DNA of 63,697 nucleotides, filler included, from Actinomycetota bacterium (GTDB taxonomy: Bacteria; Actinomycetota; Acidimicrobiia; IMCC26256; VFJJ01): assembly GCA_009886115.1 (NCBI GenBank). It is 6 parts of 6 records of this genome, joined end to end, with 100 filler letters (N's around TTAATTAATTAA, not from the genome) between each part and the next. Parts side by side here need not be neighbours in the genome. Positions count along the whole stretch, not along the records: positions 6,540 to 27,600 come from VFJJ01000089.1; positions 27,701 to 37,537 come from VFJJ01000209.1; positions 37,638 to 55,052 come from VFJJ01000186.1; 3 more parts are not named here. One strand, 5' to 3'. This document shows, piece by piece, positions 17,784 to 40,671 of this stretch (positions within the stretch are counted from its first letter, which is position 1; each line of letters opens with the position of its first letter). The notes beneath the pieces are model-generated. The model made no database searches and was not told where the DNA came from. It was given only the letters and a program-made list of their open reading frames with translations. The position numbers and the translations under genes are program-made.

Positions 17784-17929
17784 GCCGACGAGGTTACGCG
17801 GCCAAGGTGGCGCGGCCGGCTGGGCTGGCCCGGTCGCCGGTGAGGGCGGCGGTGCCAGACGACCTGCTGGAACCGGGCTGCAGCCACCGAGGAGCCCGGT
17901 CCGCCTCAGGTCACACGCCAAGCTCTGGA

Positions 17930-17971
17930 GTGGTCGTGCGCTCGATCGCATGTGATCGATTCCACGCCCAC
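17930..17971. repeat. palindrome family B, copy 1
   Basis: GTGGTCGTGCGCTCGATCGCATGTGATCGATTCCACGCCCAC is close to the reverse complement of copy 3 and lies 18 nt past the HNH gene stop. Confidence 0.88.
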
Positions 17972-17989
17972 TGCCCACGCGTCCCGGGT

Positions 17990-21129: not shown

Positions 21130-21171
21130 CGCGTCACGGCGGCGCTGCGGTGGCGGTGGTGCTACGGCGAA

Positions 21172-21213
21172 CTGGTCGTGGAATCGATCACATGTGATCG
21201 ATTCCACGACCAC
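21172..21213. repeat. palindrome family B, copy 2
   Basis: Perfect 40-bp palindrome TGGTCGTGGAATCGATCACA|TGTGATCGATTCCACGACCA at 21173-21212. Confidence 0.95.
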
Positions 21214-21345
21214 TTCACCGGGACAGCGGCATTCCGGACGCCTACACGGCCCCGGGGTCGGCCCCGCCAGGCGGCTGCCGAGGCGGCCCCGGGTGACCAG
21301 CCGCCGACAGCCAGCGCGGGCCGTCTCCGGTCAGCACAAGGGTTT

Positions 21346-21374
21346 CTGTCATACCCGGCTGGCATCGTGGGTGC
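21346..21374 (+). promoter_or_regulatory. conserved upstream motif, PafBC/RecA-NDp-like, probably leaderless
   Basis: CTGTCATACCCGGCTGGCATCGTGGG, i.e. TGTCAT-N10-CATCGT-N6-ATG. Near-identical to 39646-39675. Confidence 0.65.
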
Positions 21375-22301
21375 ATGAACGAAGCCGAACGTGACGTCAT
21401 CGTGCTGGCGACGGCGCAGTGGGGAGTGTTCACACGTGCGCAGGCGCTCGAGCTTGGGCTGCCCGAGGCCACGCCGAGCCGCCGCGTGCGAGAGGGGCGC
21501 TGGGAGATGGTGCAGCCGCGGGTGTACCGGATCGCCGGGACACGCGGCTCGTTTCGCCAGCGCGCCATGGCGGCCACGTTGTGGGCTGGGCCTGGCTCGG
21601 TGATCTCGGGAGCTGCCGCGGGCCGGCTGTGGGGCCTCGACGACATCCGCACCAGCCAGATCGAGGTGTCGGTGACACGCGATCGCAACCGGCGGGCCAT
21701 CCCGGGAATCGCCGTGCGAGCCGTGCGCACCTTGGCGAGGCCCGACACGTCCGAGCTCGAAGGGATTCCCGTCACCAGCCTGGCCCGTACGGTGATCGAC
21801 CTGGCCCAGACGTGTGACCCGGCGACCCTGGAGGTGGCCATCGACGCAGCGCTGCGCACGGGTCGCACCTCTCCGACGGCAATCCTTCTGCGGGCCAAAG
21901 CCGTGGGCCCCAGGGGACGCCGCGGTACCGGAACCCTCCGAGCGCTTCTCTGGGAACGACGCGCCGGACGGGTCGCATCGGGGAGCGCCCTCGAGACCCG
22001 GGTGCGGCGGATGCTCATCAACGCCGCCCTCCCGCTGCCCGTGTCGCAGTATCGAATTCACGATCGGGGTCGCCACGTCGCCCGGGCCGATTTCGCCTAC
22101 CCCGAGGCGCTCCTGGTGGTCGAGGTGAAGGGTTACCGATGGCGCAGCGGACGAGCGGCCTGGCTGAGCGACGCCATCCGCGACGGCGAGATCGCGGCTC
22201 GGGGGTTTCGCGTGGTCACCATCACCTGGGACGAGGTGCGCTTCGCTCCCGAAAGGGCCGTCGACCGAGTCCGCCGCGCGCTGGGGAGGCTGGCCGCCTG
22301 A
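21375..22301 (+). CDS. AbiEi-like N-terminal domain + DUF559 (Vsr-like) domain protein
   Basis: QWGVFTRAQA...RVY, VTSLARTVIDLA, SALETR, ADFAYP..LVVEVKG and GFRVVTITW motifs. Confidence 0.88.
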   Translation: MNEAERDVIVLATAQWGVFTRAQALELGLPEATPSRRVREGRWEMVQPRVYRIAGTRGSFRQRAMAATLWAGPGSVISGAAAGRLWGLDDIRTSQIEVSVTRDRNRRAIPGIAVRAVRTLARPDTSELEGIPVTSLARTVIDLAQTCDPATLEVAIDAALRTGRTSPTAILLRAKAVGPRGRRGTGTLRALLWERRAGRVASGSALETRVRRMLINAALPLPVSQYRIHDRGRHVARADFAYPEALLVVEVKGYRWRSGRAAWLSDAIRDGEIAARGFRVVTITWDEVRFAPERAVDRVRRALGRLAA

Positions 22302-22325
22302 GCGCCGAGTGGCTGGAACACGGAA

Positions 22326-22367
22326 GTGGTCGTGGAATCGATCACCTGTGATCGAACGCACGACCAC
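22326..22367. repeat. palindrome family B, copy 3
   Basis: GTGGTCGTGGAATCGATCACCTGTGATCGAACGCACGACCAC, 24 nt after the stop. Shares flanks GAA...TCACCGG with copy 2. Confidence 0.92.
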
Positions 22368-22454
22368 GTCACCGGCGGGCGTTGGTGGAGCAAGCCCCCG
22401 GCAAGCCCCCGGTAGCCCCCCGCCCGGCACCCCGCCCTGGCCCAGCGAAGCGTG

Positions 22455-23522
22455 TCAGCCCTTGTAGGTGGTGGTGGCGGCGAGCTCGGCGGCGTTGCGC
22501 ATGAGGTCGACCACGACGGGGCCGAAGCCGAGGAGCTTGTCGTTGTCGCCGGCACCCGAGACGGCCCGCATGTACCCCTGCTCGAGCACGATGGCCAGCT
22601 TCCAGCGGCCGAGGACGATGTAGTAGTCCATGTCGTCGACCTGGCGGCCCGACCGCTCGGAGAAGAACTGCAGCAGCTCCGTCCGTCCGGGCATGCCGGT
22701 GAGGTCGACGTAGGTGGCATCGGAGGCGTCGGAGGTGTCCTCGGGCCAACTGCCCACCACCCAGGCCAGGTCGAGCTTGGGATCGCCGATGGTGCCCATC
22801 TCCCAGTCGATGATGGCCGACAAGCGAGCCGGGGCACCGTGGTCGAACATGACGTTGGCGAACTGGTAGTCGCCGTGCATGAGACCGGGCACGAAGTCGA
22901 GCGGCTTGTGCTCGTTCAGCCACGCCGTCGCTTCTTCGAGGCCTTCGAGCTCACGAGTGCGGACCCGGTCGTAGAAGCGCATCCACCGCTCGACCTGGCG
23001 CTCGTGGAAGCCGTCGGGCCGGCCCAGGTCGCCCAGGCCTCGGGCTTGCCAGTCGACCTTCGACATCTCCGCCACGCCGTTCACGAGCTCGAAGGCCAAG
23101 CCCCGCCTGGCTTCCAGGTCGGTATCGAAGGGTGCCGGCCAACCGTCGGTGTTCATCGGCGACCAACCGTCGACGAACCCCATGAGGTAGAAGGTGCAGC
23201 CGAGCACGCTCTCGTCGGTGCAGACGGCGAACGCCTCGGTGTGGGGCACGTCGGTGCCGTCGAGAGCCTCGATGATCCGCCATTCCCTCACGATGCCCTC
23301 GTTGCGCCCGGCCGGTGCCTTCAGCGGCGGACGGCGAAGCGCACAGCGGAAGTCGCCTCGGGTGATCTCGAAGATCTCGTTCTGGCTCCCGCCGGAGATG
23401 AACCGGTACTCGAGCGGCACACCTTCGCCTGCGATCCCTTGGGAATCCATCCATCGGCCGAGTCGCACCGGGTCGATGAGCGCATCTGTGGGGGCGCTGT
23501 CATGCACGGCGTTGTCGCTCAT
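22455..23522 (-). CDS. phosphotransferase (APH/ACAD10-like) family protein
   Basis: GGSQNE, LRRPP, HGDYQFAN and IIDWEMGTIGDP motifs. Confidence 0.92.
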   Translation of the reverse strand: MSDNAVHDSAPTDALIDPVRLGRWMDSQGIAGEGVPLEYRFISGGSQNEIFEITRGDFRCALRRPPLKAPAGRNEGIVREWRIIEALDGTDVPHTEAFAVCTDESVLGCTFYLMGFVDGWSPMNTDGWPAPFDTDLEARRGLAFELVNGVAEMSKVDWQARGLGDLGRPDGFHERQVERWMRFYDRVRTRELEGLEEATAWLNEHKPLDFVPGLMHGDYQFANVMFDHGAPARLSAIIDWEMGTIGDPKLDLAWVVGSWPEDTSDASDATYVDLTGMPGRTELLQFFSERSGRQVDDMDYYIVLGRWKLAIVLEQGYMRAVSGAGDNDKLLGFGPVVVDLMRNAAELAATTTYKG

Positions 23523-23691
23523 GGCGATGCTCCTCGGGCCGTTCGTCGTTCCTGACCGGAGCGTACCGGCGCTCACCGTGACGCACACGCCGTCGAGCCC
23601 GAAGCCGAGCCGCCTCGCGGCCTCCAGCGTGCAGCGAGCGTCGCAGCCGGTCGCGTTGACCGGGCGTGGTCACGACGACGATGATCAGCGA

Positions 23692-25332
23692 GTGAGCGCT
23701 GCCAACCCATCCACGGACGGCGTCGGGTCGATCGACGTTCCGGTCAGGTCGATCCCGGCCCTGGCGCAGTGGGCCGCCGGGCGCTTCGGCGATCGGGAGG
23801 CGATCGTCGACGGCGATCGGCGGATCAGCTTCGTCGAGCTCGATTCCTTGGCGCTGCAGGCCACGCGGGCGTGCATCGCCAGGGGAGTGAGCCCGGGCGA
23901 CCGCGTTGCCATCTGGGCTCCCAACTCCTGGGAGTGGATCGTGGCCGCGCTCGGAGTGCTCGGCGCCGGCGGCTGGCTGGTACCGCTCAACACCCGCTTC
24001 AAGGGCGACGAGGCGGCCTACGTGCTCGAGAAGGCCGACGTGAGCCTCCTGTTCACCGTCGAGGGCTTCCTCGGCGTCGACTACGTCGCGGTGGCGCGGG
24101 ATGCCGCGCCCCATCTGCGGGCCCTCCGCGAGCCGGTGATCCTCAAAGGCGCGGCTCTCGGCGCAGGGGCCGTGTCGTTCGACGCCTTCCTCGCCACGGG
24201 CGACGCTGTCGATCCGGCCGAGGCCCAGGCCCGTATCGACGCCATCGGCAGCGACGACGTGAGCGACGTGATCTTCACGTCGGGTACGACCGGCCGGCCC
24301 AAGGGCGTGATGCTCCGCCACGGGCCGTCGCTGCGCTGTTACACGATGTTCAGCGAGGGATTCGGGCTGACCGAGGGCGATCGGTACCTCATCGTCAACC
24401 CGTTCTTCCACTGCTTCGGCTACAAGGCCGGCTGGATGGCCTGCCTGCTCACGGGGGCCACTGCCGTGCCCGTGGCGGTCCTCGACGTGGAAGCGGTGCT
24501 GGGCCTCATCGAGCGTGAGCGCATCTCGGCCCTGCCCGGGCCGCCGACGTTGTTCTGGTCGCTGCTCGAGCGCCGCGCCTCGGCCGACTCCCGCCACCAC
24601 GACCTGTCGTCGCTGCGGATCGCGTTCATGGGGGCGGCCGCCATCCCTGCCGAGCTCATCCGCCGGGTCCGTGAGGAGCTGCCGTTCAAGCGGATCACGA
24701 CCGGATACGGCCTCACCGAATGCCACGCGCTCGTGTCGATCACGCGGCCCGATGACCCGCCGGAGTGGATCGCGCGATGGAGCGCAGGGGTGGCGTTCCC
24801 GGGGATGCACGTCCGCATCGTCGATGCTGCCGGAGCGCCCGTCCCGATCGGGGAGCAGGGTGAGATCATGGTGTCGGGGTTCCACATCATGAGCGGGTAC
24901 TACGACGAGCCCGAGCAGACAGCGGCTGCCATCGAGCCCGATGGTTGGCTCCACACGGGCGACATCGGGATGCTGTCCGAGCGCGGCGACATCCGCATCA
25001 CCGACCGGTTGAAGGACATCTACATCTCGGGCGGGTTCAACGTGTCGCCGGCCGAGGTCGAGAGCGTGCTCCTGGGCTACGAGGGCGTCTCCCAGGTGGC
25101 GGTGGTCGGTGCTCCCGACGAGCGCCTGGGCGAGGTGGGGGTGGCGTTCGTGATCGCCCGTCCCGGATCGATCGTCGACGCTTCCGCTCTCATGGTTTGG
25201 GCGCGCGAGCATATGGCGAACTTCAAGGTGCCTCGGCGCGTCGAGATCGTCGAGGCCTTTCCGCTCAACGCCACCGGCAAGGTGCTCAAGGGCGAGCTGC
25301 GGCGACACACGACGATCGAGGAGAAGACATGA
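23692..25332 (+). CDS. acyl-CoA synthetase (FadD3-like)
   Basis: FTSGTTGRPKG, NPFFHCFGYKAG, YGLTE, GWLHTGDIG and GKVLK motifs. Start uncertain. Confidence 0.92.
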   Translation: MSAANPSTDGVGSIDVPVRSIPALAQWAAGRFGDREAIVDGDRRISFVELDSLALQATRACIARGVSPGDRVAIWAPNSWEWIVAALGVLGAGGWLVPLNTRFKGDEAAYVLEKADVSLLFTVEGFLGVDYVAVARDAAPHLRALREPVILKGAALGAGAVSFDAFLATGDAVDPAEAQARIDAIGSDDVSDVIFTSGTTGRPKGVMLRHGPSLRCYTMFSEGFGLTEGDRYLIVNPFFHCFGYKAGWMACLLTGATAVPVAVLDVEAVLGLIERERISALPGPPTLFWSLLERRASADSRHHDLSSLRIAFMGAAAIPAELIRRVREELPFKRITTGYGLTECHALVSITRPDDPPEWIARWSAGVAFPGMHVRIVDAAGAPVPIGEQGEIMVSGFHIMSGYYDEPEQTAAAIEPDGWLHTGDIGMLSERGDIRITDRLKDIYISGGFNVSPAEVESVLLGYEGVSQVAVVGAPDERLGEVGVAFVIARPGSIVDASALMVWAREHMANFKVPRRVEIVEAFPLNATGKVLKGELRRHTTIEEKT

Positions 25333-26606
25333 CGGACGTGACCAACGGGACCGGCGGGACCGATGTCAAGGTGCTGCCGAAGATCGTGAGCGTCGACGAC
25401 CACGTCGTGGAGCCTGCCCACCTGTTCACGTCGTGGCTCCCGGCCAAGTGGCGCGAGCGAGGACCTCGGATCGAGCGCAAGCTCATCGCCGGGGTGCGCA
25501 CCGTGGGCACCGGCGCCTACGAGCTCGACATCTCCGACGACGGCGCGCCGGCCGATTGCTGGCTGTATGACGACCAGATCGTCTACGTGCACAAGTCACA
25601 CGTCGTAATCCCCAAGACGGCCATCCCCGACGGCGACATCTTGCGCTTCGACAAGTCGAAGATGGATCTCCAGTGCATCACCTACGACGACATGTGGCCG
25701 GGTTGCATCGAGCCGAAGGCCCGGATCGCCGACCTGGCGGCGTGCGGCGTCGACGCCTCACTGGGATTCCCCACGATGCCGCGCTTTTGCGGCCAGGTGT
25801 TCCTCGAGGCCACCGACCGCGAGCTCGCGCTGGCCTGTGTGAAGGCCTACAACGACTGGATGGTCGAGGAATGGTGCGGCGATTCCGACGGCCATCTCGT
25901 TCCCCTGTGCCTCGTGCCCTTGTGGGATCCGCAGCTCGCAGCGGCCGAGATCAGGCGTAACGCTGCCCGCGGTGTCAGGGCCATCACGTTCAGCGAGATC
26001 CCGCCGCACCTGGGGCTCCCGAGCATCCACTCCGGTCACTGGGACCCGATGTTCGAGGCCTGTGACGAGACGATGACCACCGTGTGCATGCACATCGGCT
26101 CGTCGTCGAAGATGCCGATCACCTCGGCCGATGCTCCCATCGCCGTCACGGCCACGCTCACGTTCAACAACGCCATGGCCTCGCTCTCCGACTTCTTGTT
26201 CTCGGGTCTGTTCCCCAAGTACCCGAACCTGCGGGTCGCCTATTCCGAGGGCCAGATCGGTTGGCTGCCCTACGTGATCGAGCGGGCCGACGACGTGTGG
26301 GCCACCCACGACGGCTGGATGCACACTCGCAAGACGGTCCCCGAGAAGCCGTCGACCTACTACCACGGCCACGTCTTCGGCTGCTTCTTCCGTGACTTCC
26401 ACGGCGTGAAGTCGCTCGACGAGATCGGCGTCGACAACGTCACCTTCGAGACCGACTACCCGCACACCGACACGACGTGGCCGCACACGCTCAAGTACGT
26501 CGACCAGATGATGGGCCACCTGCCCGACGACGTGGTCTACAAGATCCTGCGCGGCAACGCCCTGCGCATGCTCAGCCTCAACGACGACCTCAAGGTCATC
26601 AACTGA
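25329..26606 (+). CDS. amidohydrolase family protein (amidohydro_2)
   Basis: SVDDHVVEP, AYNDW, MHIGSS, EGQIGW and ETDYPHTD motifs. ATGA overlap. Confidence 0.93.
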   Translation: MTDVTNGTGGTDVKVLPKIVSVDDHVVEPAHLFTSWLPAKWRERGPRIERKLIAGVRTVGTGAYELDISDDGAPADCWLYDDQIVYVHKSHVVIPKTAIPDGDILRFDKSKMDLQCITYDDMWPGCIEPKARIADLAACGVDASLGFPTMPRFCGQVFLEATDRELALACVKAYNDWMVEEWCGDSDGHLVPLCLVPLWDPQLAAAEIRRNAARGVRAITFSEIPPHLGLPSIHSGHWDPMFEACDETMTTVCMHIGSSSKMPITSADAPIAVTATLTFNNAMASLSDFLFSGLFPKYPNLRVAYSEGQIGWLPYVIERADDVWATHDGWMHTRKTVPEKPSTYYHGHVFGCFFRDFHGVKSLDEIGVDNVTFETDYPHTDTTWPHTLKYVDQMMGHLPDDVVYKILRGNALRMLSLNDDLKVIN

Positions 26607-26689
26607 GAGTCGCCGTGGCTGTCGTTCATCGACCTGGCGCTCGCCCGCCTGAACCTGCAGCTCAGTAGCCTACAGCTCAGTAGTTGAAC

Positions 26690-27439
26690 GCTGGCCGAGG
26701 AGCGCCGGGCCCTCTTCGGCCGATTCGGGTTGAGGCTCCCCGTCCATCCGTTCCGGCCGCACGAAGCCGCCGAGATGCTGACGCACCTGACGCCGTCCGA
26801 TCGGGCAGTGGTGTGGGGCCTCCTCGGCGGCGTCCCGCTCTACCTGTCGTGGTGGGATCAGGAGGCCACGGTGCTCGAGAACCCGGCCGAGCTCCGGCTC
26901 ATCGAGCGCGTGGTCCCCGTGACCGACGATCCCTCGAGATCGCGCCGGGTCGTGTACCGGGTCGCCGACAATTGCTTGGCCTTCTGGCTTGGCTCGGCGT
27001 CGTCGATCCGTACCGGGTCGAGATCGACCGAGGCCTGGGCCCGTCGATCCTGCCGGTGCTGCAATCGGCGCTCGACGACTTCATGGGTGCCCGATGGGAG
27101 GACGCGTTCCGCCAGCATCTCCGACGCCTCGCCGGGACAGGAGATCTTGGCGATGTCGTGGGGATCGGCCCCTTCTGGTCTGGCGGAGCCATCGAGATCG
27201 ACGCCGTCTGTCTCGCCGGACGAGACCGCGCTGCAGTATTGGTTGGCGAGGCCACGTGGGCCCGCCGGATCCGGGCGAGCGCGCACGAAGCCGCGTTCGC
27301 ACGCAAGGCCGCCGCTCTGCCCCGAGTGCGCGCTCAGCTTCGCCTGGCGCTGTGTGCTCGCGAACAGATCACTCATGCGGCTCCATCGACCCTGACGGTC
27401 ACGGCCGCCGACATCGTCAACCTGCCCGATTCGGCCTGA
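26690..27439 (+). pseudogene. archaeal-type ATPase / DUF234 family fragment
   Basis: LFGR...PF...GGVPLYL...YRVADN..AFW, then a frameshift near 26990 to ...FMG..WED..RQ...EIDAV...GEATW. No P-loop N-terminus. Confidence 0.75.
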
Positions 27440-27448
27440 AACACCCCT

Positions 27449-27600
27449 CGGGCACCTGGCGGGATGGCCGGAGGCCAGGGGCCGAGTCTCGAGACGTGCA
27501 GCGGTACTCGCCCGCGGCTCGGGGGTGGGGCCCCCCGGGCACCTGGCGGGATGGCCGGAGGCCAGGGGCCGAGTCTCGAGACGTGCAGCGGTACTCGCCC
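27449..27600 (+). repeat. 65-bp direct repeat x2 with 22-bp spacer, cut by contig end
   Basis: 27449-27513 is identical to 27536-27600. Confidence 0.92.
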
Positions 27601-27700
27601 NNNNNNNNNNNNNNNNNNNNNNNNNNNNNNNNNNNNNNNNNNNNTTAATTAATTAANNNNNNNNNNNNNNNNNNNNNNNNNNNNNNNNNNNNNNNNNNNN
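27601..27700. other. artificial scaffold linker
   Basis: N-TTAATTAATTAA-N. Confidence 0.99.
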
Positions 27701-27774
27701 CCCGGCGCCCGGCGCCCGGCGCCCGGCCGCCGGGTCGTGCGATGTCGTACGCTGCCGGGCCGAGAGGAGTGCGC

Positions 27775-28377
27775 ATGACCTACGTTCTGCCCGATCTCAC
27801 CTACGACCCCGGCGCTCTCGAGCCGCACCTCGACGGTCGGATCGTCGAGCTGCACCACGGCAAGCACCACGCCAGCTACGTGGCTGCGACGAACGCCACG
27901 CTCGACCGGCTGGCCCAGGCCCGAGCCGATGATCGGTGGGACTCGATCGTCGGTCTCGAGAAGAGCTTGGCGTTCAACCTCGGCGGTCACGTCCTGCACA
28001 GCCTCTACTGGGCCAACCTGTCGCCCCAAGGCGGGGGCGAGCCCACCGGTGGGTTCGCCGACGCCCTCGGTGGCTCGTTCGGCTCGTTCGCCGCGTTCAA
28101 GGCGCAGTTCACCCAGGCGACCGTCAGCGTGCAGGGCTCGGGCTGGGGGCTGCTCACCTACGAACCGCTCGGCGACGTGCTGATCGTCGAGCAACTCGAG
28201 GTGCACCACCAGTCGACCGTCTTGGGCGGCGTGCCGATCCTGGCGATCGACGCCTGGGAGCACGCCTACTACCTGCAGTACGAGAACCGACGCGCCGAGT
28301 ACATGAGCGCTATCTGGAACGTCGTCGACTGGAGCGACGTCGAGCAGCGCTGGCAGTCGGCCACCAGGGCCGGCTGA
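27775..28377 (+). CDS. sodA: Fe/Mn superoxide dismutase
   Basis: LHHGKHH, FNLGGHVLHSLYW, QGSGW and DAWEHAYY motifs. GAGGAG RBS. Confidence 0.95.
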   Translation: MTYVLPDLTYDPGALEPHLDGRIVELHHGKHHASYVAATNATLDRLAQARADDRWDSIVGLEKSLAFNLGGHVLHSLYWANLSPQGGGEPTGGFADALGGSFGSFAAFKAQFTQATVSVQGSGWGLLTYEPLGDVLIVEQLEVHHQSTVLGGVPILAIDAWEHAYYLQYENRRAEYMSAIWNVVDWSDVEQRWQSATRAG

Positions 28378-28381
28378 GAGG

Positions 28382-29272: not shown

Positions 29273-29411
29273 CGCATCCCTCCCGGCCGCTCCCGTGCAC
29301 GAACTCCGAGCTTCGGGCTGTCGTCGTACGGATCGTGTCTGGCAATCCCTCGGTTGGCCGGAGTCTGGCGGGCGCACCGTGGCGTGTCCAGCACGGGCGC
29401 ACGACGATCGA

Positions 29412-31256: not shown

Positions 31257-31284
31257 TGGTGCGACCTGCCTGCGCGGCGCTCCC

Positions 31285-31749: not shown

Positions 31750-32164
31750 GGAAGGCCTTTCTGTCGGAGTGCCTCCGATGTCGACGACGTCGCTCATGCA
31801 GTCCCTCGTCCGTGATCGTTGGATCGGCTGTTCGGCGCCCGGAGGGAACCGGCCGCCCGCCGGACGGTAACGAGCGGCCGAGCCGCCCGTCAACGCGTGA
31901 GGCCTCACGCCCGTGGGTGCACGCCGGGAGATCCGGGCGGTCTTCACCTTGCCCGGCAACCGACGAGTCACCGTTGCACCGTTGCATCCTCTCGCCGCGT
32001 GGCGCGGTCCGTTCTCTCGAATGTCCCGTTGAAGATCGACGCGTCGGAGGACGCCGCGAGCCGGACCGGGCCGGTCCCGCTCGATCTCGGGCGGTCTGAT
32101 TAGAGTTCGAAGCTCGCGTTGGATGACACCCGGGCCCGCTGTGTGCCCAGGGAAGGGACCAGAC

Positions 32165-33079: not shown

Positions 33080-33948
33080 CCGTGTCCGGCGGTGTCCCCA
33101 TGGGGCCACCCCGTGACACCAACCGACGATCGGCCGCGCGCGCCCTGCTCCGAGAGGAGGGCGCGCGTGGCGCGTTGGTGGCCTTCGCCAGCACGGTCAC
33201 CCTCTTCGCCGTCGTCGTGGTCCTCGTGGCCACGAGCGACAACTGGCCGAAGGTGCGCAAGCAGTACTTCTCCGTCGACGACTTTCGGACCGTGTTCCCG
33301 TCCATCCGCAAGGGATTCTGGCTCGACATCAAGATGTTCGTCTACGCGGCGCCCTCGGTGCTCGTGGTGTCGCTGGTGATCGCGGTGTTGCGGAGCTTGC
33401 GGGGAGCGGTGTTCTTTCCGCTGCGTCTGCTCAGCGTGGTGTTCATCGACCTGTTCCGCGGGATACCCGTCTATCTCGTGATCCTCCTTCTGGGCTTCGG
33501 GGTTCCCGCCCTCGACATCGGTGGGGTGCCGCGCAGCGCCGTGTTCTGGGGCGTTACCGCCATGGTGCTCTCGTACTCGGCGTACACGGCCGAGGTGTTT
33601 CGATCCGGGATCGAGTCGGTGCACGACAGCCAGCGCTCGGCGGCGCGGGCGTTGGGGCTCACGCAATGGCAGTCGTTGCGCTTCGCCGTGTTGCCCCAAG
33701 CGGTCCGCAACGTCATCCCGGCTCTGCTCAGCACCTTGGTGAGCCTGCAAAAGGACGTCGCCCTCATCGGCGTGCTCGGCATTCGTGAGGCGGTGAAGGC
33801 CGCCGACGTGTACAAGGGCAACACGTTCAACTACACGGGCTACATCGCCGCCGCGTTCTTGTTCCTGCTCATCAGCGTGCCCCTGGCCCGTTTCGCCGAC
33901 TGGTACACGGGCCGGGAGCGGGCGCGACGATCGCAGGCGTTGGCATGA
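33076..33948 (+). CDS. amino acid ABC transporter permease
   Basis: FRGIP, SAYTAEVFRSGI, ARALGL and LPQA motifs. Start uncertain. Confidence 0.92.
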   Translation: MTVSGGVPMGPPRDTNRRSAARALLREEGARGALVAFASTVTLFAVVVVLVATSDNWPKVRKQYFSVDDFRTVFPSIRKGFWLDIKMFVYAAPSVLVVSLVIAVLRSLRGAVFFPLRLLSVVFIDLFRGIPVYLVILLLGFGVPALDIGGVPRSAVFWGVTAMVLSYSAYTAEVFRSGIESVHDSQRSAARALGLTQWQSLRFAVLPQAVRNVIPALLSTLVSLQKDVALIGVLGIREAVKAADVYKGNTFNYTGYIAAAFLFLLISVPLARFADWYTGRERARRSQALA

Positions 33949-34697
33949 GCGTCCCCCCGAAGCTCGCGATTCGTGAGGTGCACAAGGCGTTCGGCGCCAC
34001 CCGGGTGCTCGACGGGGTGTCGCTCGAGGTGACCGAGCACGAGGTGGTGTGCCTCATCGGATCCTCGGGAAGCGGGAAGTCGACTCTCCTGCGGTGCGTG
34101 AACCTGCTCGAGATCGTCGACTCGGGCCAGATCGTCCTCGACGGTCACGAGATCACCGGCCCCGGCGTGAACGCCAATGATGTCCGCAAGCGCATCGGCA
34201 TCGTGTTCCAGTCGTTCAACCTGTTCCGGCACATGACCCTGCTCGACAACGTCACCCTGGGGCCGCGTCGGGTCCGCAAGGTCCCCAAGGCTCAGGCCGA
34301 GAGCAGGGCCATGGAGCTGCTCGCCCGCTTCGGCTTGGCCGACAAGGCCCGCGAGTATCCCGACCGGCTCTCGGGCGGCCAGCAACAGCGCGGTGCCATC
34401 GTGCGAGCGCTGATCGGCGATCCCGAGCTGCTACTCCTCGACGAGATCACCTCGGCCCTCGACCCCGAGCTCGTCGGTGAGGTGCTCGGCGTGATCCGCG
34501 AGCTCGCCGCCGGGGGCATGACCATGGTGCTGGCCACCCACGAGATGGGCTTCGCGCGCGATGTCGCGACCACCGTGGCCTTCCTCGACGGGGGCCGGGT
34601 CCTCGAGGCGGGCCCGCCAGCTCAGCTCCTGTCCGACCCGCAGCACGACCGCACCCGCCGTTTCCTGGCCCGCGTCATCGAAGCTGGTCGCCTGTAA
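33945..34697 (+). CDS. amino acid ABC transporter ATP-binding protein
   Basis: GSSGSGKS, LSGGQQQR, LLLDEITSALDPE and THEMGFA motifs. Confidence 0.95.
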   Translation: MSVPPKLAIREVHKAFGATRVLDGVSLEVTEHEVVCLIGSSGSGKSTLLRCVNLLEIVDSGQIVLDGHEITGPGVNANDVRKRIGIVFQSFNLFRHMTLLDNVTLGPRRVRKVPKAQAESRAMELLARFGLADKAREYPDRLSGGQQQRGAIVRALIGDPELLLLDEITSALDPELVGEVLGVIRELAAGGMTMVLATHEMGFARDVATTVAFLDGGRVLEAGPPAQLLSDPQHDRTRRFLARVIEAGRL

Positions 34698-34743
34698 GCG
34701 TCCGTTTCTGGCTCCCGTCGCCCGGCTCCCGTCGCCCGGCATC

Positions 34744-34782
34744 GGCGATGGCGATGGCGATGGCGATGGCGATGGCGATGGC
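34744..34782 (+). repeat. hexamer tandem repeat (GGCGAT)x6
   Basis: Read directly, between convergent genes. Confidence 0.9.
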
Positions 34783-34804
34783 AAGGAGGTCCACCGTTTC
34801 CCGT

Positions 34805-35947
34805 TCAGCGCAAGGGGCGGAAGAACTCGCGAATCTCGTGCACCAGGGCACCGGGGTTCTCCATAGCGGGAAAGTGCCCGCCGTCGTCGATGCGGGTATA
34901 GCGGTGGAGGTTGAAGTGCGGCTCGATCAGCTCCCGCGGCGGCCGGTTCATCTCGTTGAAGAGTGCGACGCCGGTCGGGACGTCGACGCGTGGGCGGGGG
35001 ATCTGCGATCCGGGCCCGAAGGTCTCGGCGTACATCCGCATCGACGGTCCGATGCACCGGGTGGCCCAGTAGATCGTGAGGACCGTGCACATCTGGTCGA
35101 TCGAAATGCGGTTCTCGAGGCGCCGCACGCCGTCGGGGCCGACGCAGTCGGTCCAGCGCCACCATTTCTCGACGAGCCACGCCGCGAGCCCGGCGGGGGA
35201 GTCGGTGAGCGCGAACGCCGGGGTCTGCGGCTTCGTCCGCTGGAGGTGCACGTAGCCCCACTCCGCGTCGCGATACGTCGCCAGCGCGTCGGCCCAGACC
35301 CGCTGTTCGGCCGTCAGTGTCGCGGCGTCGAACGGTGGGGCCACCATGTTCAGGTGGATGCCGACGAGACGCTCGGGGTGCCGCACGGCCAGCGCGGTGG
35401 TGACGGCCGATCCCCAGTCGCCGCCCTGGGATCCGAAGCGCTCGTACCCGAAAGCCGCCATCAGCTGCACCCACAGGTCGGCCACCCGGTCGATACCCGT
35501 CCCGCGCTCGGTCGGGGGCGACGAGAACGCATATCCGGGAAGCGACGGCACGACGACGTGGAAGGCGTCGGCCGGATCGCCGCCGTGGGCGCCCGGGTCG
35601 GTGAGCGGCCCCAGAACCTCGACCATCTCGACGAAGCTGCTGGGCCAGCCGTGGGTGATCACGAGTGGGAGCGGTGCCGGTCCGCGGCCGGGAACGTGGA
35701 CGCAGTGCACGTCGAGACCGTCGAGTGTCACCAGGTACTGGGGAAGCTGGTTGAGCCGGCGCTCGTGGAGGCGCCAGTCGTAGCGGTGGCGCCAATGCCG
35801 GCACAGCCCCTGGACGTATCCGAGGTCGCTGCCGTAGTCCCAGCCCGCGCCGGCGATGGTCTGGGGCCACAGGGTCGCGTCGAGCCGGCGGTGGAGGTCT
35901 TCGACAACGTCGTCGGCGACGGCGATCGTGAACGGCTGGGGCGTCAT
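34805..35947 (-). CDS. epoxide hydrolase (microsomal/EHN type)
   Basis: HGWP, VVPSLPGYAFS, QGGDWG and GGHFPAME motifs. Confidence 0.95.
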   Translation of the reverse strand: MTPQPFTIAVADDVVEDLHRRLDATLWPQTIAGAGWDYGSDLGYVQGLCRHWRHRYDWRLHERRLNQLPQYLVTLDGLDVHCVHVPGRGPAPLPLVITHGWPSSFVEMVEVLGPLTDPGAHGGDPADAFHVVVPSLPGYAFSSPPTERGTGIDRVADLWVQLMAAFGYERFGSQGGDWGSAVTTALAVRHPERLVGIHLNMVAPPFDAATLTAEQRVWADALATYRDAEWGYVHLQRTKPQTPAFALTDSPAGLAAWLVEKWWRWTDCVGPDGVRRLENRISIDQMCTVLTIYWATRCIGPSMRMYAETFGPGSQIPRPRVDVPTGVALFNEMNRPPRELIEPHFNLHRYTRIDDGGHFPAMENPGALVHEIREFFRPLR

Positions 35948-36118
35948 TGCACTCGCGCTCCTCGGGCCTCGGGCTCTGCTGGCTCACATCTTCGGTACAC
36001 CGTACGGGTTCCCGGGGCTGCCCCCCCGGCGGCGTTCCCCAGGTCGCTGGGAGGCTCCCCACGCCCGTCGTCGGGAACCGGTCCGCTGAGCCGACGACCA
36101 ACGGCGCAACCGCGATCG

Positions 36119-36340
36119 TCACGAGGGGCCAGGGAGCTCGGCCATGGTTCGATGCGCCCGCACCGCCGCCTGCACCAGCGGGACCGCCAGGCACGCCCCG
36201 GTGCCTTCTCCGATCCGAGGCGGAGGTCGAGCTCCAGCAGCGGCTCGAGCCCGAGGTGGGCAGTGCGATGGTTTGCCCCGGACCTCGGGCACCTGTTTCA
36301 GAAGGATGCCGACGAGACACGCCGGACGGCGGACGCGGGA
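36119..36340 (-). pseudogene. cobT: C-terminal remnant of nicotinate-nucleotide--dimethylbenzimidazole phosphoribosyltransferase
   Basis: HLGLEPLLELDLRLG, a 5-bp TCGGA duplication at 36209-36218, then EGTGACLAVPLVQAA...TMA, matching the CobT LRLGEGTGA signature. 5' boundary approximate. Confidence 0.75.
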
Positions 36341-36420
36341 CGGCCGTGGTGACGGCCGACCCCCCGTCGCCTCCCAGCGCGGCATCGAACGCGGTTCGGG
36401 GCCGGGCCCTTGGTTCGAGA

Positions 36421-36447
36421 ATATAGACAAGTAGATATACTGGCACG
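36421..36447 (+). promoter_or_regulatory. probable leaderless promoter with overlapping imperfect inverted repeat
   Basis: TATACT at 36436-36441 lies 6 nt before ATG 36448. ATATAGAC-AA-GTAGATAT is an AT-rich imperfect inverted repeat. Confidence 0.6.
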
Positions 36448-36780
36448 ATGGACCCCGCCACCGTGCTCCGAGATGCTCGCCGACGATCGGGGCTGACCCA
36501 GAGCGAGCTGGCCCGGCGCGCGGGCACGTCGCAGCCCGTGATCTCGGCGTACGAGCGGGGCCATCGAGATCCCACCTCGGCGACGCTCCAGCGGCTGGTC
36601 GAATCCACGGGGCATCGGCTTCGCATCGACGCCGTTCCCATTCCGACCTGCGACATCGAGCCGCCAGTCGATGTCGCTGAGCATGGGCGTCGACTCATCG
36701 AGGTGCTGGGCCTGGCCGACGCCATCCCGGCTCGACCTCGAAGCCCGGTCCTGCGAGCGCCGCGCCTCGTGTCGAGGTGA
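36448..36780 (+). CDS. XRE-family helix-turn-helix protein
   Basis: LRDARRRSGLTQSELARRAGTSQPVISAYERG. Confidence 0.9.
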   Translation: MDPATVLRDARRRSGLTQSELARRAGTSQPVISAYERGHRDPTSATLQRLVESTGHRLRIDAVPIPTCDIEPPVDVAEHGRRLIEVLGLADAIPARPRSPVLRAPRLVSR

Positions 36781-37331
36781 ACCGTTTCTCGCTCGTCGAC
36801 AAGGTGCTCGCCATCTCCGGCGCGCTCGAGATGCTCCCGCACGCGTTCGGCGGGGCGTTGGCCCTTGCGTACTACGCAGAGCCGCGATCCACGATCGACA
36901 TCGACCTGAACGTCTTCGTTCCGGTCACGGGCTTCCCGGAGGTCGCTGAGCGGCTCGGGGCTCTCGGCGTCGCCATCGGCGACCGAGGTGTTGCCGCGCT
37001 GGTCGAGCGGGACGGGCAGGCGCGCGTGCACTGGGAGTCGACGCCCATCGACCTCTTCTTCGCCTACGACCCGTTCCATGATGCTGCCGAAGCGCGGCGC
37101 CGGATGGTGCCGTTCGCCGACTCGGCGATCTCGATACTCGCCGCCGAGCATCTCGTGGTCTGCAAGGTGATCTTCAATCGCCCCAAGGACTGGGTGGACA
37201 TCGGCGCCATGCTCGACCTCTGGACGGCCATCGACGCGGCGGAAGTCTTCCGTTGGGTGGGGCGCATCGCGGGCGACGATGATCCGCGCTTCGAACGTAT
37301 CGTCGCCGTCCTCACCCACCCCGTCCGCTGA
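36777..37331 (+). CDS. nucleotidyltransferase-fold protein (AbiEii/DUF6036-like)
   Basis: GGALAL.YY..PRSTIDIDL, IDLFF and K....RPKDW.D motifs. GTGA overlap with the XRE gene. Confidence 0.82.
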   Translation: MNRFSLVDKVLAISGALEMLPHAFGGALALAYYAEPRSTIDIDLNVFVPVTGFPEVAERLGALGVAIGDRGVAALVERDGQARVHWESTPIDLFFAYDPFHDAAEARRRMVPFADSAISILAAEHLVVCKVIFNRPKDWVDIGAMLDLWTAIDAAEVFRWVGRIAGDDDPRFERIVAVLTHPVR

Positions 37332-37537
37332 GGCGGAACGCATCGGGCTCGCGGCGTTCGGGTCGCCGAGTGTGCCCTTTGGAGCCGTCGAGGGTTGGCC
37401 CATCGGCGACGCCGAGACCTTCGAGGTGGACGTCGGCGGTCGGTTGCTGGTCACTGGCTACTGATGAGTAGCTCAGAACTACCTCTGTCGTTATCGGCGC
37501 CCGGCTGCCGCTCGGCAGCTGGCTGCGGTTCTGGAGG

Positions 37538-37637
37538 NNNNNNNNNNNNNNNNNNNNNNNNNNNNNNNNNNNNNNNNNNNNTTAATTAATTAANNNNNNN
37601 NNNNNNNNNNNNNNNNNNNNNNNNNNNNNNNNNNNNN
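37538..37637. other. artificial scaffold linker
   Basis: N-TTAATTAATTAA-N. Confidence 0.99.
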
Positions 37638-37796
37638 GTCGGTCATGAGTGTCCGGGGCTCGAGCAAGCCTCGGAGAGCATCGACCGGTGCGATCGCCGC
37701 CTGTAGCGCTGCAGCGGTGCCCGGTCCGTCGGGTGGCGGCCGAGGAGTCGGCGGTAGCCTCCGGCCCGAAACCCGCCCAGCCTCCCGGAGTGCGCG

Positions 37797-38753
37797 ATGC
37801 CGGTCAGCCTCATCCCCGCAGGTCAGCTCGTGTACGGCATGCAGCTGCAGGTGCAGGCCCAGAGCGCCCACTTCATCGAGCCCTGGGAGTGGACGGCCGG
37901 AGCCGACGAGCTGGCGACCATGGCCCGCAAGGCCGACGAGGCGGGGTTCTTCTACATCGGGGTGTGCGACCACGTTGCCGTGAACACGGCCGTCCCCATG
38001 GCCCACATGGGCTCGGCGTGGTACGAGACGCTCTCGACGCTGGGGTTCCTGGCCGCGCACACCACTCGGGTCAGGTTGCTGTCGAACGTGGCGATCCTGG
38101 GATTCCGCCATCCCCTGGTGACGGCCAAGCAGTGGATCACGCTCGACAAGCTGTCGAAAGGGCGGGCGATCCTCGGGATCGGCGTGGGTTGGGCCGAGGG
38201 CGAGTACGACCTGCTCGGCGCCGACTTCGTGAACCGCGGCCGGTTGGCCAACGACGCCTTGACGGTCATCCGGGCCGTGTTCGACGAGGAGTACCCGACC
38301 GTCACGGCCGGCGAGTGGTCGCTCGACGGATCCTGGGGATTCGGCCCGCGTCCCGTCCAGGACCACATTCCGGTGTGGATCGGCGGACGGGGCAAGCCCG
38401 CGCTGCGACGGGTGGCCGAGCACGGTGACGGCTGGGTCCCCCAGGGCACACCCCTGGCCGAGCTCGCTGCCGAGATCGCCTACGTCAGGGAGCACCAGGC
38501 CCGAATCGGCCGAGAGGGCCCGCTCGACATCGGTGCGATCACCGAGGTCATGTACGTGGGAACGCCGAGCTGGGACGTGAGCGACCGTCCGACGCTCGTC
38601 GGAACACCCGAGCAGCTCGCCGAGCGGATGCGGGAGTGGAAGTCGGCGGGCGCCAACCATCTGCAGATCCGCTTCCGCAACCGGTCGGTCGAGGAGCTCT
38701 GCGACCAGATGGATGCCTGGTATGCCGGCGTCGCCCCCCTCCTCAACGATTGA
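37797..38753 (+). CDS. LLM-class F420-dependent oxidoreductase (TIGR03619-like)
   Basis: CDHV, RHPLVTAKQ, LGIGVGW..GEY and WIGG...ALRRVAEHGDGW motifs. Confidence 0.92.
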   Translation: MPVSLIPAGQLVYGMQLQVQAQSAHFIEPWEWTAGADELATMARKADEAGFFYIGVCDHVAVNTAVPMAHMGSAWYETLSTLGFLAAHTTRVRLLSNVAILGFRHPLVTAKQWITLDKLSKGRAILGIGVGWAEGEYDLLGADFVNRGRLANDALTVIRAVFDEEYPTVTAGEWSLDGSWGFGPRPVQDHIPVWIGGRGKPALRRVAEHGDGWVPQGTPLAELAAEIAYVREHQARIGREGPLDIGAITEVMYVGTPSWDVSDRPTLVGTPEQLAERMREWKSAGANHLQIRFRNRSVEELCDQMDAWYAGVAPLLND

Positions 38754-38767
38754 AAGGCTGTTCCACC

Positions 38768-39550
38768 ATGGGACTCTGTGACGCGAAGGTGGCTGTGGTC
38801 TCGGGCATCGGCCCCGGGATGGGCCGCGACATCTCGTTGGCCTTGGCCGCTGAAGGCGCCGACATCGTGATGCTGGCGCGCACCGAGGCCAAGACGCTCG
38901 AGGTCGCCGCCGAGGTGGAGGCGCTCGGACGCCGAGCCGTCCCCATCCGGTGCGACATCACGTCGCTCGACGACTGCGCGCACGTCGCCGAGGTGTGCCA
39001 CGCCGAGTTCGGACGGGTCGACGTGCTGGTGAACAACGCCTTCCACGAGGGCGACTACTCCGCTGCGATGACCGCCGACCTCGACGTGTGGCGTCAGACG
39101 ATGGAGATCAACTTCTTCGGGACGCTGCAGTTGGTACGGGCGCTCGTCCCGCTGATGAAGCCCACGGGCGACGGGCGAATCATCAACGTGAACACGCAGT
39201 CGACGTTCCAGTACAAGGCCAATTTCGGGGCCTACGCGTCCTCGAAGAACGCCCTGCTGTCGGTGACCAAGAGCCTGGCTCGCGAGCTCGGCCCCGACGG
39301 GATTCGCGTCAACTCGATCCATCCCGGCTTCATCTGGGGCCCGTCGGTCGAGGGCTATCTCCAGCGCCAGGCCGACGCCCGGGGCGTGCCGTTCCAGCAG
39401 GTGTACGACGAGGTGGCATCCGAGACCTGCCTGAGGTACCTCCCGCACTCGTCCGAGATCGCCGGCTCGGTCGTCTTCCTCGCCTCGGCATTGTCACGCC
39501 CCGTCACCGGCCAATGGTTCGCCGTCAACTGCGGCCACGTCATCGTGTAG
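38768..39550 (+). CDS. SDR-family oxidoreductase
   Basis: SGIGPGMG, VLVNNA, YASSK and GIRVN motifs. Confidence 0.93.
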   Translation: MGLCDAKVAVVSGIGPGMGRDISLALAAEGADIVMLARTEAKTLEVAAEVEALGRRAVPIRCDITSLDDCAHVAEVCHAEFGRVDVLVNNAFHEGDYSAAMTADLDVWRQTMEINFFGTLQLVRALVPLMKPTGDGRIINVNTQSTFQYKANFGAYASSKNALLSVTKSLARELGPDGIRVNSIHPGFIWGPSVEGYLQRQADARGVPFQQVYDEVASETCLRYLPHSSEIAGSVVFLASALSRPVTGQWFAVNCGHVIV

Positions 39551-39558
39551 ATCCATCT

Positions 39559-39602
39559 TTCTTCGCGATTTCGCACCGGGGGTGCGCGAAATCGCGAGGA
39601 AA
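39559..39602. repeat. palindrome family C, copy 1
   Basis: TTCTTCGCGATTTCGCACC-GGG-GGTGCGCGAAATCGCGAGGAAA, a bulged hairpin. 43/44 identical to 40575-40618. Confidence 0.93.
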
Positions 39603-39645
39603 TCGTCAGTCGGGCGCTGCGTCGGGCCGTGCCCACCGGGCGAGA

Positions 39646-39675
39646 CTGTCGTACCCCATCGGCATCATGGGGCGC
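39646..39675 (+). promoter_or_regulatory. conserved upstream motif, PafBC/RecA-NDp-like, probably leaderless
   Basis: CTGTCGTACCCCATCGGCATCATGGG, i.e. TGTCGT-N10-CATCAT-N7-ATG. Matches 21346-21374. Confidence 0.65.
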
Positions 39676-40671
39676 ATGAGATTCGAGCGGGTGGGTTCCA
39701 TCGCCAGCACTCAGTTCGGCCTGATCACGACCAGGCAGGCCCTCGGGGTGGTTTCCCGTCGCGATCTGGAGCGGGCCGTACGCACCGGCTCGCTCGTCCG
39801 GGTCGCCCAAGGGGTGTATGTCTTCGCAGGCGTCCCGCCGTCGTGGGAGCGGTTGGTGATGACCGCGGTGCTCGCGGCGGGCGAAGGGGTGCGCGTGTCC
39901 CACGCTGCGGCCGCGGTCCTGTGGGGCCTCCCCGGCTTCGACGGCCGCCTCCGGCCGCCACCGGAAGTCACGGTGCCCAACGGACGATGGCCCCGCCTCC
40001 GAGGGGTGGTCGTGCACTCGTCCTCGATGATCGATGGGGTGCACCAGGCCCGTCTGGGTGGCTGGCCGATCACCTCGATCGCCCGAACCCTCTGCGACGT
40101 GGCGCCACGCCTGTCGGCATCAGCGCTGACTGCGACGCTCGATCAGGCCCTCGTGACCAGGATGGTGACCGTCGAACAGATGAACGAGATGCTCGCCCTG
40201 CGCGCCGGACCCGGTCGGCGTTCCCCGGGAGCGCTACCACGCCTGATGGCAGCGCGGGGCGTCGAGTACGAGCGAGCCGACAGCCGCCCCGAGGTGATCC
40301 TGTATCGCTGGATCGTCGCAGCGGGTCTGCCCGTCCCCGTCCAGCAGCATCCCGTCACGGTCGATGGCCACACGTACTGGATCGACCTTGCCTACCCGGA
40401 GGGGCCCATCTTCTTCGAGTACGACGGCTGGGATCCGCACCGGTCCCGCTCGGCCTTCGACTCCGACCGGGCCCGTCGGAATCGGCTGACCTCGATGGGG
40501 ACGGTGTTGGTCTACACCTCGGCGAGCACCCGGGCTCAGGTCGTGTCCGACATCGCCACGGCCCTCCACCTCGATTCTTCGCGATTTCGCACCGGGGGTG
40601 CGCGAAATCGCGAAGAAACCGTGGGGCAGGCGCTGCGACGGGCCGCCGGTGGCGAACGGCGGGCCGGGTGA
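39676..40671 (+). CDS. AbiEi-like N-terminal domain + DUF559-like domain protein
   Basis: QFGLITTRQA...QGVY, SHAAAAVLWGL, TSIARTLCD, SRPE and DLAYP...EYDG..PH...D..R motifs. The ORF reads through the downstream palindrome. Confidence 0.88.
   Translation: MRFERVGSIASTQFGLITTRQALGVVSRRDLERAVRTGSLVRVAQGVYVFAGVPPSWERLVMTAVLAAGEGVRVSHAAAAVLWGLPGFDGRLRPPPEVTVPNGRWPRLRGVVVHSSSMIDGVHQARLGGWPITSIARTLCDVAPRLSASALTATLDQALVTRMVTVEQMNEMLALRAGPGRRSPGALPRLMAARGVEYERADSRPEVILYRWIVAAGLPVPVQQHPVTVDGHTYWIDLAYPEGPIFFEYDGWDPHRSRSAFDSDRARRNRLTSMGTVLVYTSASTRAQVVSDIATALHLDSSRFRTGGARNREETVGQALRRAAGGERRAG
40575..40618. repeat. palindrome family C, copy 2
   Basis: TTCTTCGCGATTTCGCACCGGGGGTGCGCGAAATCGCGAAGAAA, a direct repeat of copy 1. 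Confidence 0.93.

Follow-up and report, generated by a model that had tools for sequence, protein, structure and literature searches.

Two divergent genes encoding AbiEi-type proteins, each lying between two copies of a palindrome of its own, raise the question of whether such proteins and their palindromes work together and, if so, to what effect. The window, that is, the whole stretch of DNA analysed here, measures 63.7 kb and consists of six contig pieces joined by runs of N from one draft genome (G000), which comprises 224 contigs and 5.45 Mb at 69.5% GC and is 95.6% complete. The two genes, designated B and C, are located on separate contigs (C74 and C76, respectively) and belong to the seven full-length paralogues, A to G, of this genome, which was compared with its one congener (G001) and with more distant relatives. 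B and C are two of seven like units, in each of which the gene is bracketed by two copies of a private hairpin palindrome of about 45-70 bp. These units look like a nuclease/palindrome partnership of the REPtron kind, an actinobacterial counterpart of the repetitive extragenic palindromes (REPs) and the REP-associated tyrosine transposases (RAYTs). Indeed, the association of gene and repeat, differences in copy number and concerted evolution suggest that the proteins recognise their palindromes and mobilise or maintain them. We give a probability of roughly 0.55 to the reading in which each protein recognises its own palindrome and its nuclease drives the spread and homogenisation of the family, probably by repair-templated copying, a reading in which we infer activity from association. 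The features of the two loci are the following.

21169..21221, no strand assigned: upstream copy of the family-B palindrome, a near-perfect 48-nt palindrome with a few flanking bases, forming a direct and an inverted repeat
21347..21353, plus strand: motif TGTCATA, 28 nt before the start codon of gene B, from the upstream alignment of the seven paralogues; candidate promoter or operator element
21375..22301, plus strand: gene B, 308 aa, with an AbiEi-type winged helix, an AbiEi C-domain and a Vsr/I-Bth0305I-type nuclease domain
22323..22375, no strand assigned: downstream copy of the family-B palindrome, 21 nt past the stop codon of gene B
39559..39629, plus strand: upstream copy of the family-C element, consisting of a 44-nt palindrome, whose loop is asymmetric, and a G-rich tail of 27 nt behind it
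39647..39653, plus strand: motif TGTCGTA, 29 nt before the start codon of gene C
39676..40671, plus strand: gene C, 331 aa, a paralogue of B at about 31% identity, its homologous part stopping near 40563
40575..40645, plus strand: downstream copy of the family-C element, in the same orientation as the upstream copy and with 0 mismatches to the family pattern

The original prediction had drawn both loci as palindrome, conserved promoter motif, gene and second direct copy of the same palindrome, and this layout is borne out by direct repeats and by hairpin folding. The direct repeat at locus B is 53 nt long, with copies 89% identical and both palindromic, and that at locus C is 71 nt long, with copies 90% identical. 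Folded as single-stranded DNA, the upstream and downstream copies reach -23.6 kcal/mol (z -8.3) and -17.7 kcal/mol (z -4.7) in family B, and -18.7 kcal/mol (z -5.7) and -21.6 kcal/mol (z -6.4) in family C, with 0 of 200 shuffles folding as well. The two families, described from the outset as unrelated, have neither a site nor sequence in common, and not a single cross-family overlap occurs among the 76 palindrome sites found by BLAST in the genome. The upstream motif is likewise conserved, as a TGTC[AGC][TC]A sequence lies 28-50 nt before the matched start at 32 of 74 loci but in only 5 of 370 control windows.

The same arrangement holds for the whole set of paralogues in this genome. Profile and tblastn searches retrieved seven full-length paralogues, 30-69% identical, together with two shorter AbiEi-only relatives. 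With a flanking repeat pair of at least 30 nt as the criterion for bracketing, and any hit tallied separately, all seven full-length paralogues are bracketed, by pairs of 32-72 nt that are 87.5-96% alike and belong to a different palindrome family each. Among 500 random open reading frames (ORFs) of 270-360 aa with high GC at third codon positions, any hit was obtained for 20, a repeat of at least 30 nt for 2 and a palindromic one for 1, a crotonase gene between two family-D copies. Thus the expected excess of palindromes beside the paralogues is present (7/7 versus 2/500). So is the expected lack of the enzyme that accompanies REPs elsewhere, since no match to the RAYT domain Y1_Tnp (PF01797) occurs anywhere in the 95.6%-complete genome.

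What the genes encode was only partly captured by the label AbiEi-N/DUF559. The AbiEi part stands, AbiEi_4 being the sole Pfam family above cut-off for both proteins (27.5 bits for B and 31.3 bits for C, cut-off 25), and the fold of the remainder is Vsr-like, but the DUF559 assignment does not hold at family level: PF04480 scores 17.1 bits for B, below its cut-off of 20.6, and is without match for C. MTES_1575, a Vsr-type domain whose definition is given in a passage of PMC3710099, also remains below cut-off for B, and C matches no nuclease family at all. In the genome-wide scan, the PF04480 cut-off is passed by two other paralogues, on contigs C131 and C70, and protein C does have the D and E that are invariant across the aligned paralogues. 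For B, an AlphaFold model based on 74 family sequences has a mean predicted local distance difference test score of 95.3. In Foldseek searches, its N-terminal two-thirds match the AbiEi antitoxin of Streptococcus agalactiae (6y8q, E 1e-4, template modelling (TM) score 0.66 on target) and Rv2827c (1zel), while its C-terminal domain matches the catalytic domain of I-Bth0305I (3r3p, TM score 0.65-0.76 on target, 22-24% identity) and Vsr (1cw0, 1vsr). Conservation reaches 90% or more across the 74 sequences at each of the residues D239, E250, H257, D266 and R269, and by analogy the first four would represent the catalytic set. To judge from this conservation, the nuclease domain looks active and under selection.

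Each gene has its palindrome close by, and most of the families also occur at a distance from their genes. The assumption that the palindromes are found only at the two loci had to be corrected, since families B and C have 11 and 21 sites in the genome, respectively; BLAST gives 2 sites for A, 31 for D, 3 for E and 8 for F. Solo copies of six families, numbering between 1 and more than 60 per family, are scattered over the genome, most of them directly downstream of other genes. The gene A pair matches only itself by BLAST, and its wider kinship emerges from a strict palindrome census (20-nt arms, at least 18 paired), which yielded 139 sites in 41 clusters and, on one large contig, 4 real sites against 0 in three shuffles. 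The largest cluster, the A superfamily, has 64 copies whose outer arms and part of whose inner stem are common with the gene A pair, and further clusters are related to families G and F. The A superfamily is made up of two subfamilies, A1 and A2, that differ by matched changes on both arms. Across it, 1217 of 1280 arm cells are paired, 433 are changed on both arms and still complementary, and 63 are broken; these figures count cells rather than events, and register shifts may inflate them. Many copies are identical, the pattern being matched without a mismatch by 14 of the 31 copies of A1 and 8 of the 19 of D. Solo copies lie directly behind stop codons, often with C-rich or G-rich tracts and short tandem repeats beside them. 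No terminal GTAG/CGTC tag was seen by eye in the family alignments, CGTC being found inside the A1 stem. A loop motif shared across families was considered and set aside as too weak (ATA/TAT in 15 of 32 hairpin centres; AT content 0.47 in loops and 0.40 in arms).

The association extends beyond this genome. Relatives retrieved by protein search are Acidimicrobiia and other Actinomycetota metagenome-assembled genomes (MAGs). The protein family occurs in 19 of 21 sampled genomes of the same order, with 1-11 copies each, and at E <=1e-30 in 42 of 121 sampled Actinomycetota genomes, a tally that takes in five genomes flagged unpublished, which contributed no sequence to the analysis; divergent paralogues number 1-14 per genome. 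Within the order (20 relatives, 20 families), a repeat of at least 30 nt flanks the gene at 30 of 68 loci, or 30 of 62 once the loci are restricted to those whose two flanks each reach 300 nt, and any hit is found at 45 of 68. In the rest of the phylum the corresponding figures are 14 and 23 of 40 loci, ranging by family from 2/10 to 4/6. A search started from a single protein gave 10 loci, with any flank repeat in 3 and one of at least 30 nt in 2. One of these loci (L008) has flank-repeat sequences identical to those of another locus (L023), and the two look like one locus fetched twice. In a complete, single-contig relative of 2.5 Mb, the single gene is flanked by two copies with 98% identity, and a further 15 solo copies have 78-90% identity. 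The number of representative clusters matched by the profile built here is 16,934 at a threshold of E <=1e-30 and rises to 106,675 when E <=0.001 is accepted. Conversely, none of 72,556 plasmid records covers at least 80% of the protein and none of 50,697 phage records matches it; the protein family is essentially chromosomal.

Seven loci from this genome and 30 from the order form a set of 37 positive loci, with a median repeat length of 50 nt, a median identity of 92% and a best orientation that is direct in 24 and inverted in 13. In this set the median distance from the end of the upstream repeat, which lies shortly before the TGTC.TA motif, to the first matched codon is 66 nt, and that from the last matched codon to the downstream repeat is 19 nt. 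Such geometry would suit a purely regulatory arrangement, in which an autoregulated AbiEi-like DNA-binding protein has its operator in the upstream palindrome and its terminator in the downstream one, nothing is mobilised, and the solo copies act as additional binding sites or as terminators of a general kind. AbiEi itself controls its own expression by way of promoter inverted repeats, the fold of AbiEi is found here, and solo copies are located right behind the stop codons of other genes. The arrangement would however leave no role for a nuclease domain with such strongly conserved residues, and it does not explain the solo-copy polymorphism, the many identical copies or the concerted replacement at orthologous sites described below. 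We therefore regard a purely regulatory role as decidedly improbable.

The congener, whose flanking genes are 82-90% identical in DNA to those of this genome, provides evidence that whole units are gained and lost. Gene C is missing there, its flanks being 39 nt apart instead of 1011, with one solo family-C palindrome and a similar tail left. Genes A and E are missing as well, at contiguous orthologous sites where a short intergenic stretch without a full palindrome is found. As for gene B, it is not beside its conserved APH-type neighbour in the congener, and synteny on the other side is broken too. Identity of the congener's paralogues to A, B, C and E does not exceed 47%, and the nearest relative of gene D has 77% protein identity. 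For gene F an orthologue with 89% DNA identity lies at a contig end, and gene G has a counterpart syntenic on one side whose protein is 64% identical. The expectations that the genes would be syntenically unstable and that empty sites with one or no palindrome would be found in a relative were in this way both confirmed. A gene remnant beside the palindrome of the empty gene C site was also considered and rejected, the likeness to the gene's 3' end being limited to CGA before TTCTTCGCG, which is common to many family copies. On contig C24 of the congener (L058, L099), two family genes lie about 1.8 kb apart (2-541 and 2330-3226), one a partial gene F orthologue, at the 89% DNA identity already given, and the other a paralogue at 71% identity that has a palindrome pair to itself.

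The solo copies change between the two species as well. Seven solo sites of this genome were aligned to the congener. Two of them, C_7232 and A1_12203, are cleanly absent there with contiguous flanks, and one family-C site holds unrelated sequence of similar length instead. Two family-D solo copies are conserved in both species, with identical outer arms and inner stems changed compensatorily. Of three aligned A-family sites, two are kept in the congener, and each genome carries its own variant there; such species-own variants at orthologous sites point to palindromes that were converted or replaced where they stood, and not simply inherited vertically. The sites C38:15076-15118 and C38:29384-29424, compared with L160 and L164 of the congener, hold species-specific subfamily variants with matched changes on both arms. 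Copy numbers in this genome, which has genes A and C, and in the congener, which lacks both, were as follows.

A1 pattern, at most 3 mismatches: 31 in this genome, 3 in the congener
A2 pattern, at most 3 mismatches: 33 in this genome, 7 in the congener
C pattern, at most 3 mismatches: 17 in this genome, 8 in the congener
Outer arm GTGCAG...CTGCAC: 30 in this genome, 10 in the congener
Outer arm GCGCGG...CCGCGC: 18 in this genome, 3 in the congener

The first three patterns were built from variants of this genome and thus favour it, undercounting the congener's own variant, which is why the copies were recounted with the variant-neutral outer-arm patterns. The A-superfamily excess shrank accordingly, from about 6-fold (64 versus 10) to about 3.7-fold (48 versus 13). 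The inner stem of the GTGCAG type reads CGTCGCC in 30 of 30 copies in this genome, as in the gene A pair, and GCTCAC in 9 of 10 copies in the congener. The variants shared throughout this genome, together with the exact-match copies, indicate homogenisation within a genome that includes orthologous sites.

These comparisons bear directly on the main rival, a selfish gene of the homing type, whose nuclease would cut a pre-existing solo palindrome and be copied in by repair with the donor's palindromes as homology arms, thereby leaving the gene between two full palindromes, the palindromes themselves having spread by some other process. The empty gene C site in the congener, with exactly one solo palindrome and the same tail, is what such copying would start from, the best structural matches of the nuclease domain include the homing endonuclease I-Bth0305I (3r3p), and units do come and go between the congeners. 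Yet there is a single gene copy for each family, where up to 60 or more intact palindromes could serve as targets, and the empty A and E sites contain no full palindrome. Homing of the gene also leaves unexplained that solo copy number and variant track the gene and that change is concerted at orthologous sites, and no full-length plasmid or phage match was obtained among the records mentioned above. A gene of this type is therefore an unlikely explanation of the units.

The turnover of units can also be viewed in terms of defence or addiction, with the protein as a single-chain relative of AbiE, its nuclease being the toxic part and the palindromes serving as recombination sites for a host or other recombinase. 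Such a cassette would fit the AbiEi_4 domain, the fast turnover with many divergent paralogues per genome and the G locus of the congener, where a syntenic protein is so little conserved. As originally noted, however, no AbiEii toxin is found among the six neighbouring ORFs scanned around B and C, nor does any other partner adjoin the genes. Scanning of the ORFs next to B and C revealed no recombinase, the protein is not found full-length on plasmids or in phages, and dozens of solo copies behind housekeeping genes would be unexpected for cassette sites. We consider a cassette of this kind very improbable indeed.

In the favoured interpretation, a protein acting on its own palindrome, the winged-helix module would recognise the conserved outer arms, either in duplex form or as an extruded hairpin, and the nuclease domain would nick or cut at the recognised palindrome. 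Recombinational repair with another copy as template would then spread and homogenise the family through gene conversion, with occasional new insertions. The gene-proximal pair would tie the gene to its repeats and may in addition serve as operator and terminator, and the unit of gene plus palindromes is itself gained and lost between close species.

Whether protein and palindrome diverge together has a divided answer. The fact that each gene has one private palindrome family is itself a form of co-variation. Pairs of closely related proteins add to it, since at 71% and 64% identity the palindrome scores exceed the 95th percentile of all pairs, with outer arms common and inner stems different, and the congener's relative of the D protein accompanies family-D copies with identical outer arms in both species; retention of the outer arms is limited to the most similar proteins (64-77% identity). 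The pair of B and E (69%) has no such likeness, the B repeat having been cut to 33 nt in that comparison. Only three pairs in the test exceed 60% identity; most protein pairs are 30-45% identical and their palindromes unalignable.

Several results weigh against a protein that acts on its own palindrome. First of all, the global co-phylogeny expected at the outset was not recovered: a Mantel-type test of protein identity against palindrome similarity over the 37 positive loci gave a Spearman coefficient of -0.02, reached by 1233 of 2000 permutations, and a Pearson coefficient of 0.07, reached by 244 of 2000. Flank repeats of at least 30 nt are missing at 38 of 68 loci in the order and 26 of 40 in the rest of the phylum, where one family is bracketed at only 2 of 10 loci. 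Housekeeping genes situated between family-D copies indicate that bracketing alone is not exclusive to nuclease genes when a family is abundant. Gene and repeats are not always matched either, since family E has a single solo copy, the gene A pair is several bases off the sequence of A1, an abundant subfamily, no gene belongs to subfamily A2, and an orphan family (GCACCTGTCGCTCA...TGAGCGACAGGTGC, about 5 copies) lacks a partner gene in the assembly. Family-C copies, moreover, persist in the congener (8) without gene C, and the divergence within the flanking pairs of this genome argues that no fresh event is among them. Finally, the comparison of copy number and homogenisation rests on two genomes, and the arm statistics carry the possible inflation mentioned above. 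Taken together, the original interpretation is supported in part, by the excess of palindromes, the private families, the instability of the genes and the lack of a RAYT, and not supported as regards global co-phylogeny.

Further observations concern the loci themselves and the rest of the window, where additional palindromes are found at the following positions.

17929..17972 (C74:11390-11433), no strand assigned: third family-B palindrome, found by BLAST, 3.2 kb upstream and behind a DUF222 gene
7446..7492 (C74:913-947), no strand assigned: A-superfamily solo copy, its cognate gene being on contig C178, outside the window
61541..61591 (C82:6389-6439), no strand assigned: second A-superfamily solo copy in the window

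Gene C has no stop in frame ahead of its downstream palindrome, and about 32 C-terminal codons are made of repeat and tail (40564-40671). A 71-nt target-site duplication at this locus was considered; since a similar G-rich tail occurs on other family-C copies and on the solo copy at the congener's empty site, the tail is probably part of the element, and the duplication was dropped. A hairpin in the leader RNA before the start codon, suggested by eye from ACCCC/GGGG, was also rejected, as RNAalifold on seven leaders gave -0.43 kcal/mol and no supported helix. In four public metagenome runs, assembled contigs (Logan) end at both family-C palindromes (39568-39612 and 40572-40620), and one contig of 1035 nt runs exactly from palindrome to palindrome. 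In the contigs over 38900-41400, examined for signs of excision or circles, the three joints listed have sides of only 20-22 letters, under the reliability guide of the tool, and speak neither for nor against excision. The breaks at the palindromes suggest that the repeats fragment short-read assemblies.

Ordinary metabolic genes and one DUF222 gene surround B and C: the ORFs scanned there encode short-chain dehydrogenases/reductases, a monooxygenase of the luciferase-like type, an APH-type phosphotransferase and a DUF222 protein, and one has weak matches to Vgb_lyase/DUF6923. The DUF222 protein (645 aa, E 4e-12, 17990-19927, minus strand) ends 18 nt from the third family-B palindrome. The DUF222 domain is typical of mycobacterial 13E12-repeat/HNH-endonuclease proteins, so that two kinds of putative nuclease gene are present among family-B palindromes within 4.5 kb. 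Outside families B and C, two genes named by eye, one crotonase-like (C52:25464-26544) and one acyl-CoA dehydrogenase-like (C120:13584-14955), each lie between two family-D palindromes. The borders of A-superfamily copies, both solo and gene-flanking, show a C-rich tract on the left and a G-rich tract on the right (L001:1612-1650 on contig C178 and many solo copies). Beside gene A, the 8-mer GTCAGCCC occurs five times, repeating the stop-codon region of the convergent neighbour, and is present as a single copy in the congener. The orphan family has copies in the window at 56307-56357 (C82:1155-1205) and on contigs C181, C202, C138 and C6.

The comparison with REPtrons, or REPIN-RAYT systems, reveals likeness in organisation and difference in enzyme. 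In both, there is one gene copy per repeat family and several gene/family pairs per genome, the gene lies between copies of its cognate palindrome, as it does here for all seven paralogues, and the palindrome is dispersed extragenically behind genes as a hairpin kept by compensatory change. RAYT genes are indeed said to be flanked by REPs, reportedly an observation by Nunvar in 2010. The enzyme, in contrast, combines here a winged helix with a Vsr-type nuclease and is not an HUH/Y1 transposase. The palindromes measure 44-56 bp, against the 20-40 bp given in the abstract of PMC3733652, where the term Actinobacteria does not come up in a term search. Single-copy RAYTs are described as replicating non-autonomous REPINs, and REPIN-RAYT systems as mostly vertically inherited (10.1101/2022.05.22.493013, PMC3337134, 10.1101/119735), whereas the present units are gained and lost between congeners, in hosts of the phylum Actinomycetota.

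Other known systems share single components. The N-terminal winged helix and the following domain superpose on AbiEi (6y8q) and Rv2827c (1zel), but the units differ from the type IV system AbiE in that no AbiEii nucleotidyltransferase is next door, the protein is extended at its C-terminus by a nuclease domain of about 100 aa and dispersed palindromes bracket the gene. With Vsr, DUF559 and I-Bth0305I they have in common the C-terminal fold and a conserved acidic/histidine set, which is however fused here to an AbiEi module and found in no intron, intein or phage context. IS1397 and ISKpn1 are insertion sequences that target REP elements, and like them the units place a mobile gene in or beside REP-type palindromes; unlike them, they have no transposase, two full palindromes rather than a split one, and an own family per gene. 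Full-text literature searches on DUF559, AbiEi, REP, RAYT and palindromes, with subscription journals outside their coverage, returned no description of this arrangement.

A broader extension is tentative, and we hold it possible rather than probable: the family would constitute a phylum-wide repeat system independent of HUH enzymes, in which the members of a large and rapidly diversifying group of nucleases (about 17,000 clusters at 50% identity) would each address a private hairpin through a variable winged helix and the palindromes would home by gene conversion. Here a Vsr-type nick would drive the copying of a palindrome over other copies and into new sites. Since Vsr-type enzymes cut at mismatches, their action on extruded hairpins could turn a mutation of one arm into a matched pair, and correction of the arms in this way would explain both the many compensatory changes and the concerted evolution. 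A variable recognition helix at residues 31-40, which has the second-lowest conservation among 10-residue windows (0.19 versus about 0.32 overall), was not retained as a result and is suggestive only, three other windows being similarly low or lower.

To our knowledge, REP-type repeats have so far had a single kind of partner enzyme, the RAYT tyrosine transposase. The occurrence of the same signature, that is, a gene, its flanking palindromes and a dispersed family, with an unrelated enzyme points to convergent enzyme/repeat partnerships and bears on the origin and persistence of short palindromic repeats outside RAYT-bearing lineages. Since they break short-read assemblies, the palindromes also matter for the quality of actinobacterial MAGs. 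For the protein family, the findings provide a candidate function to a very large group annotated only as 'AbiEi antitoxin domain' or 'DUF559', and, if it is true that each protein reads its own ~25 bp per half-site, the family would represent a natural library of long-site DNA binders and nickases.

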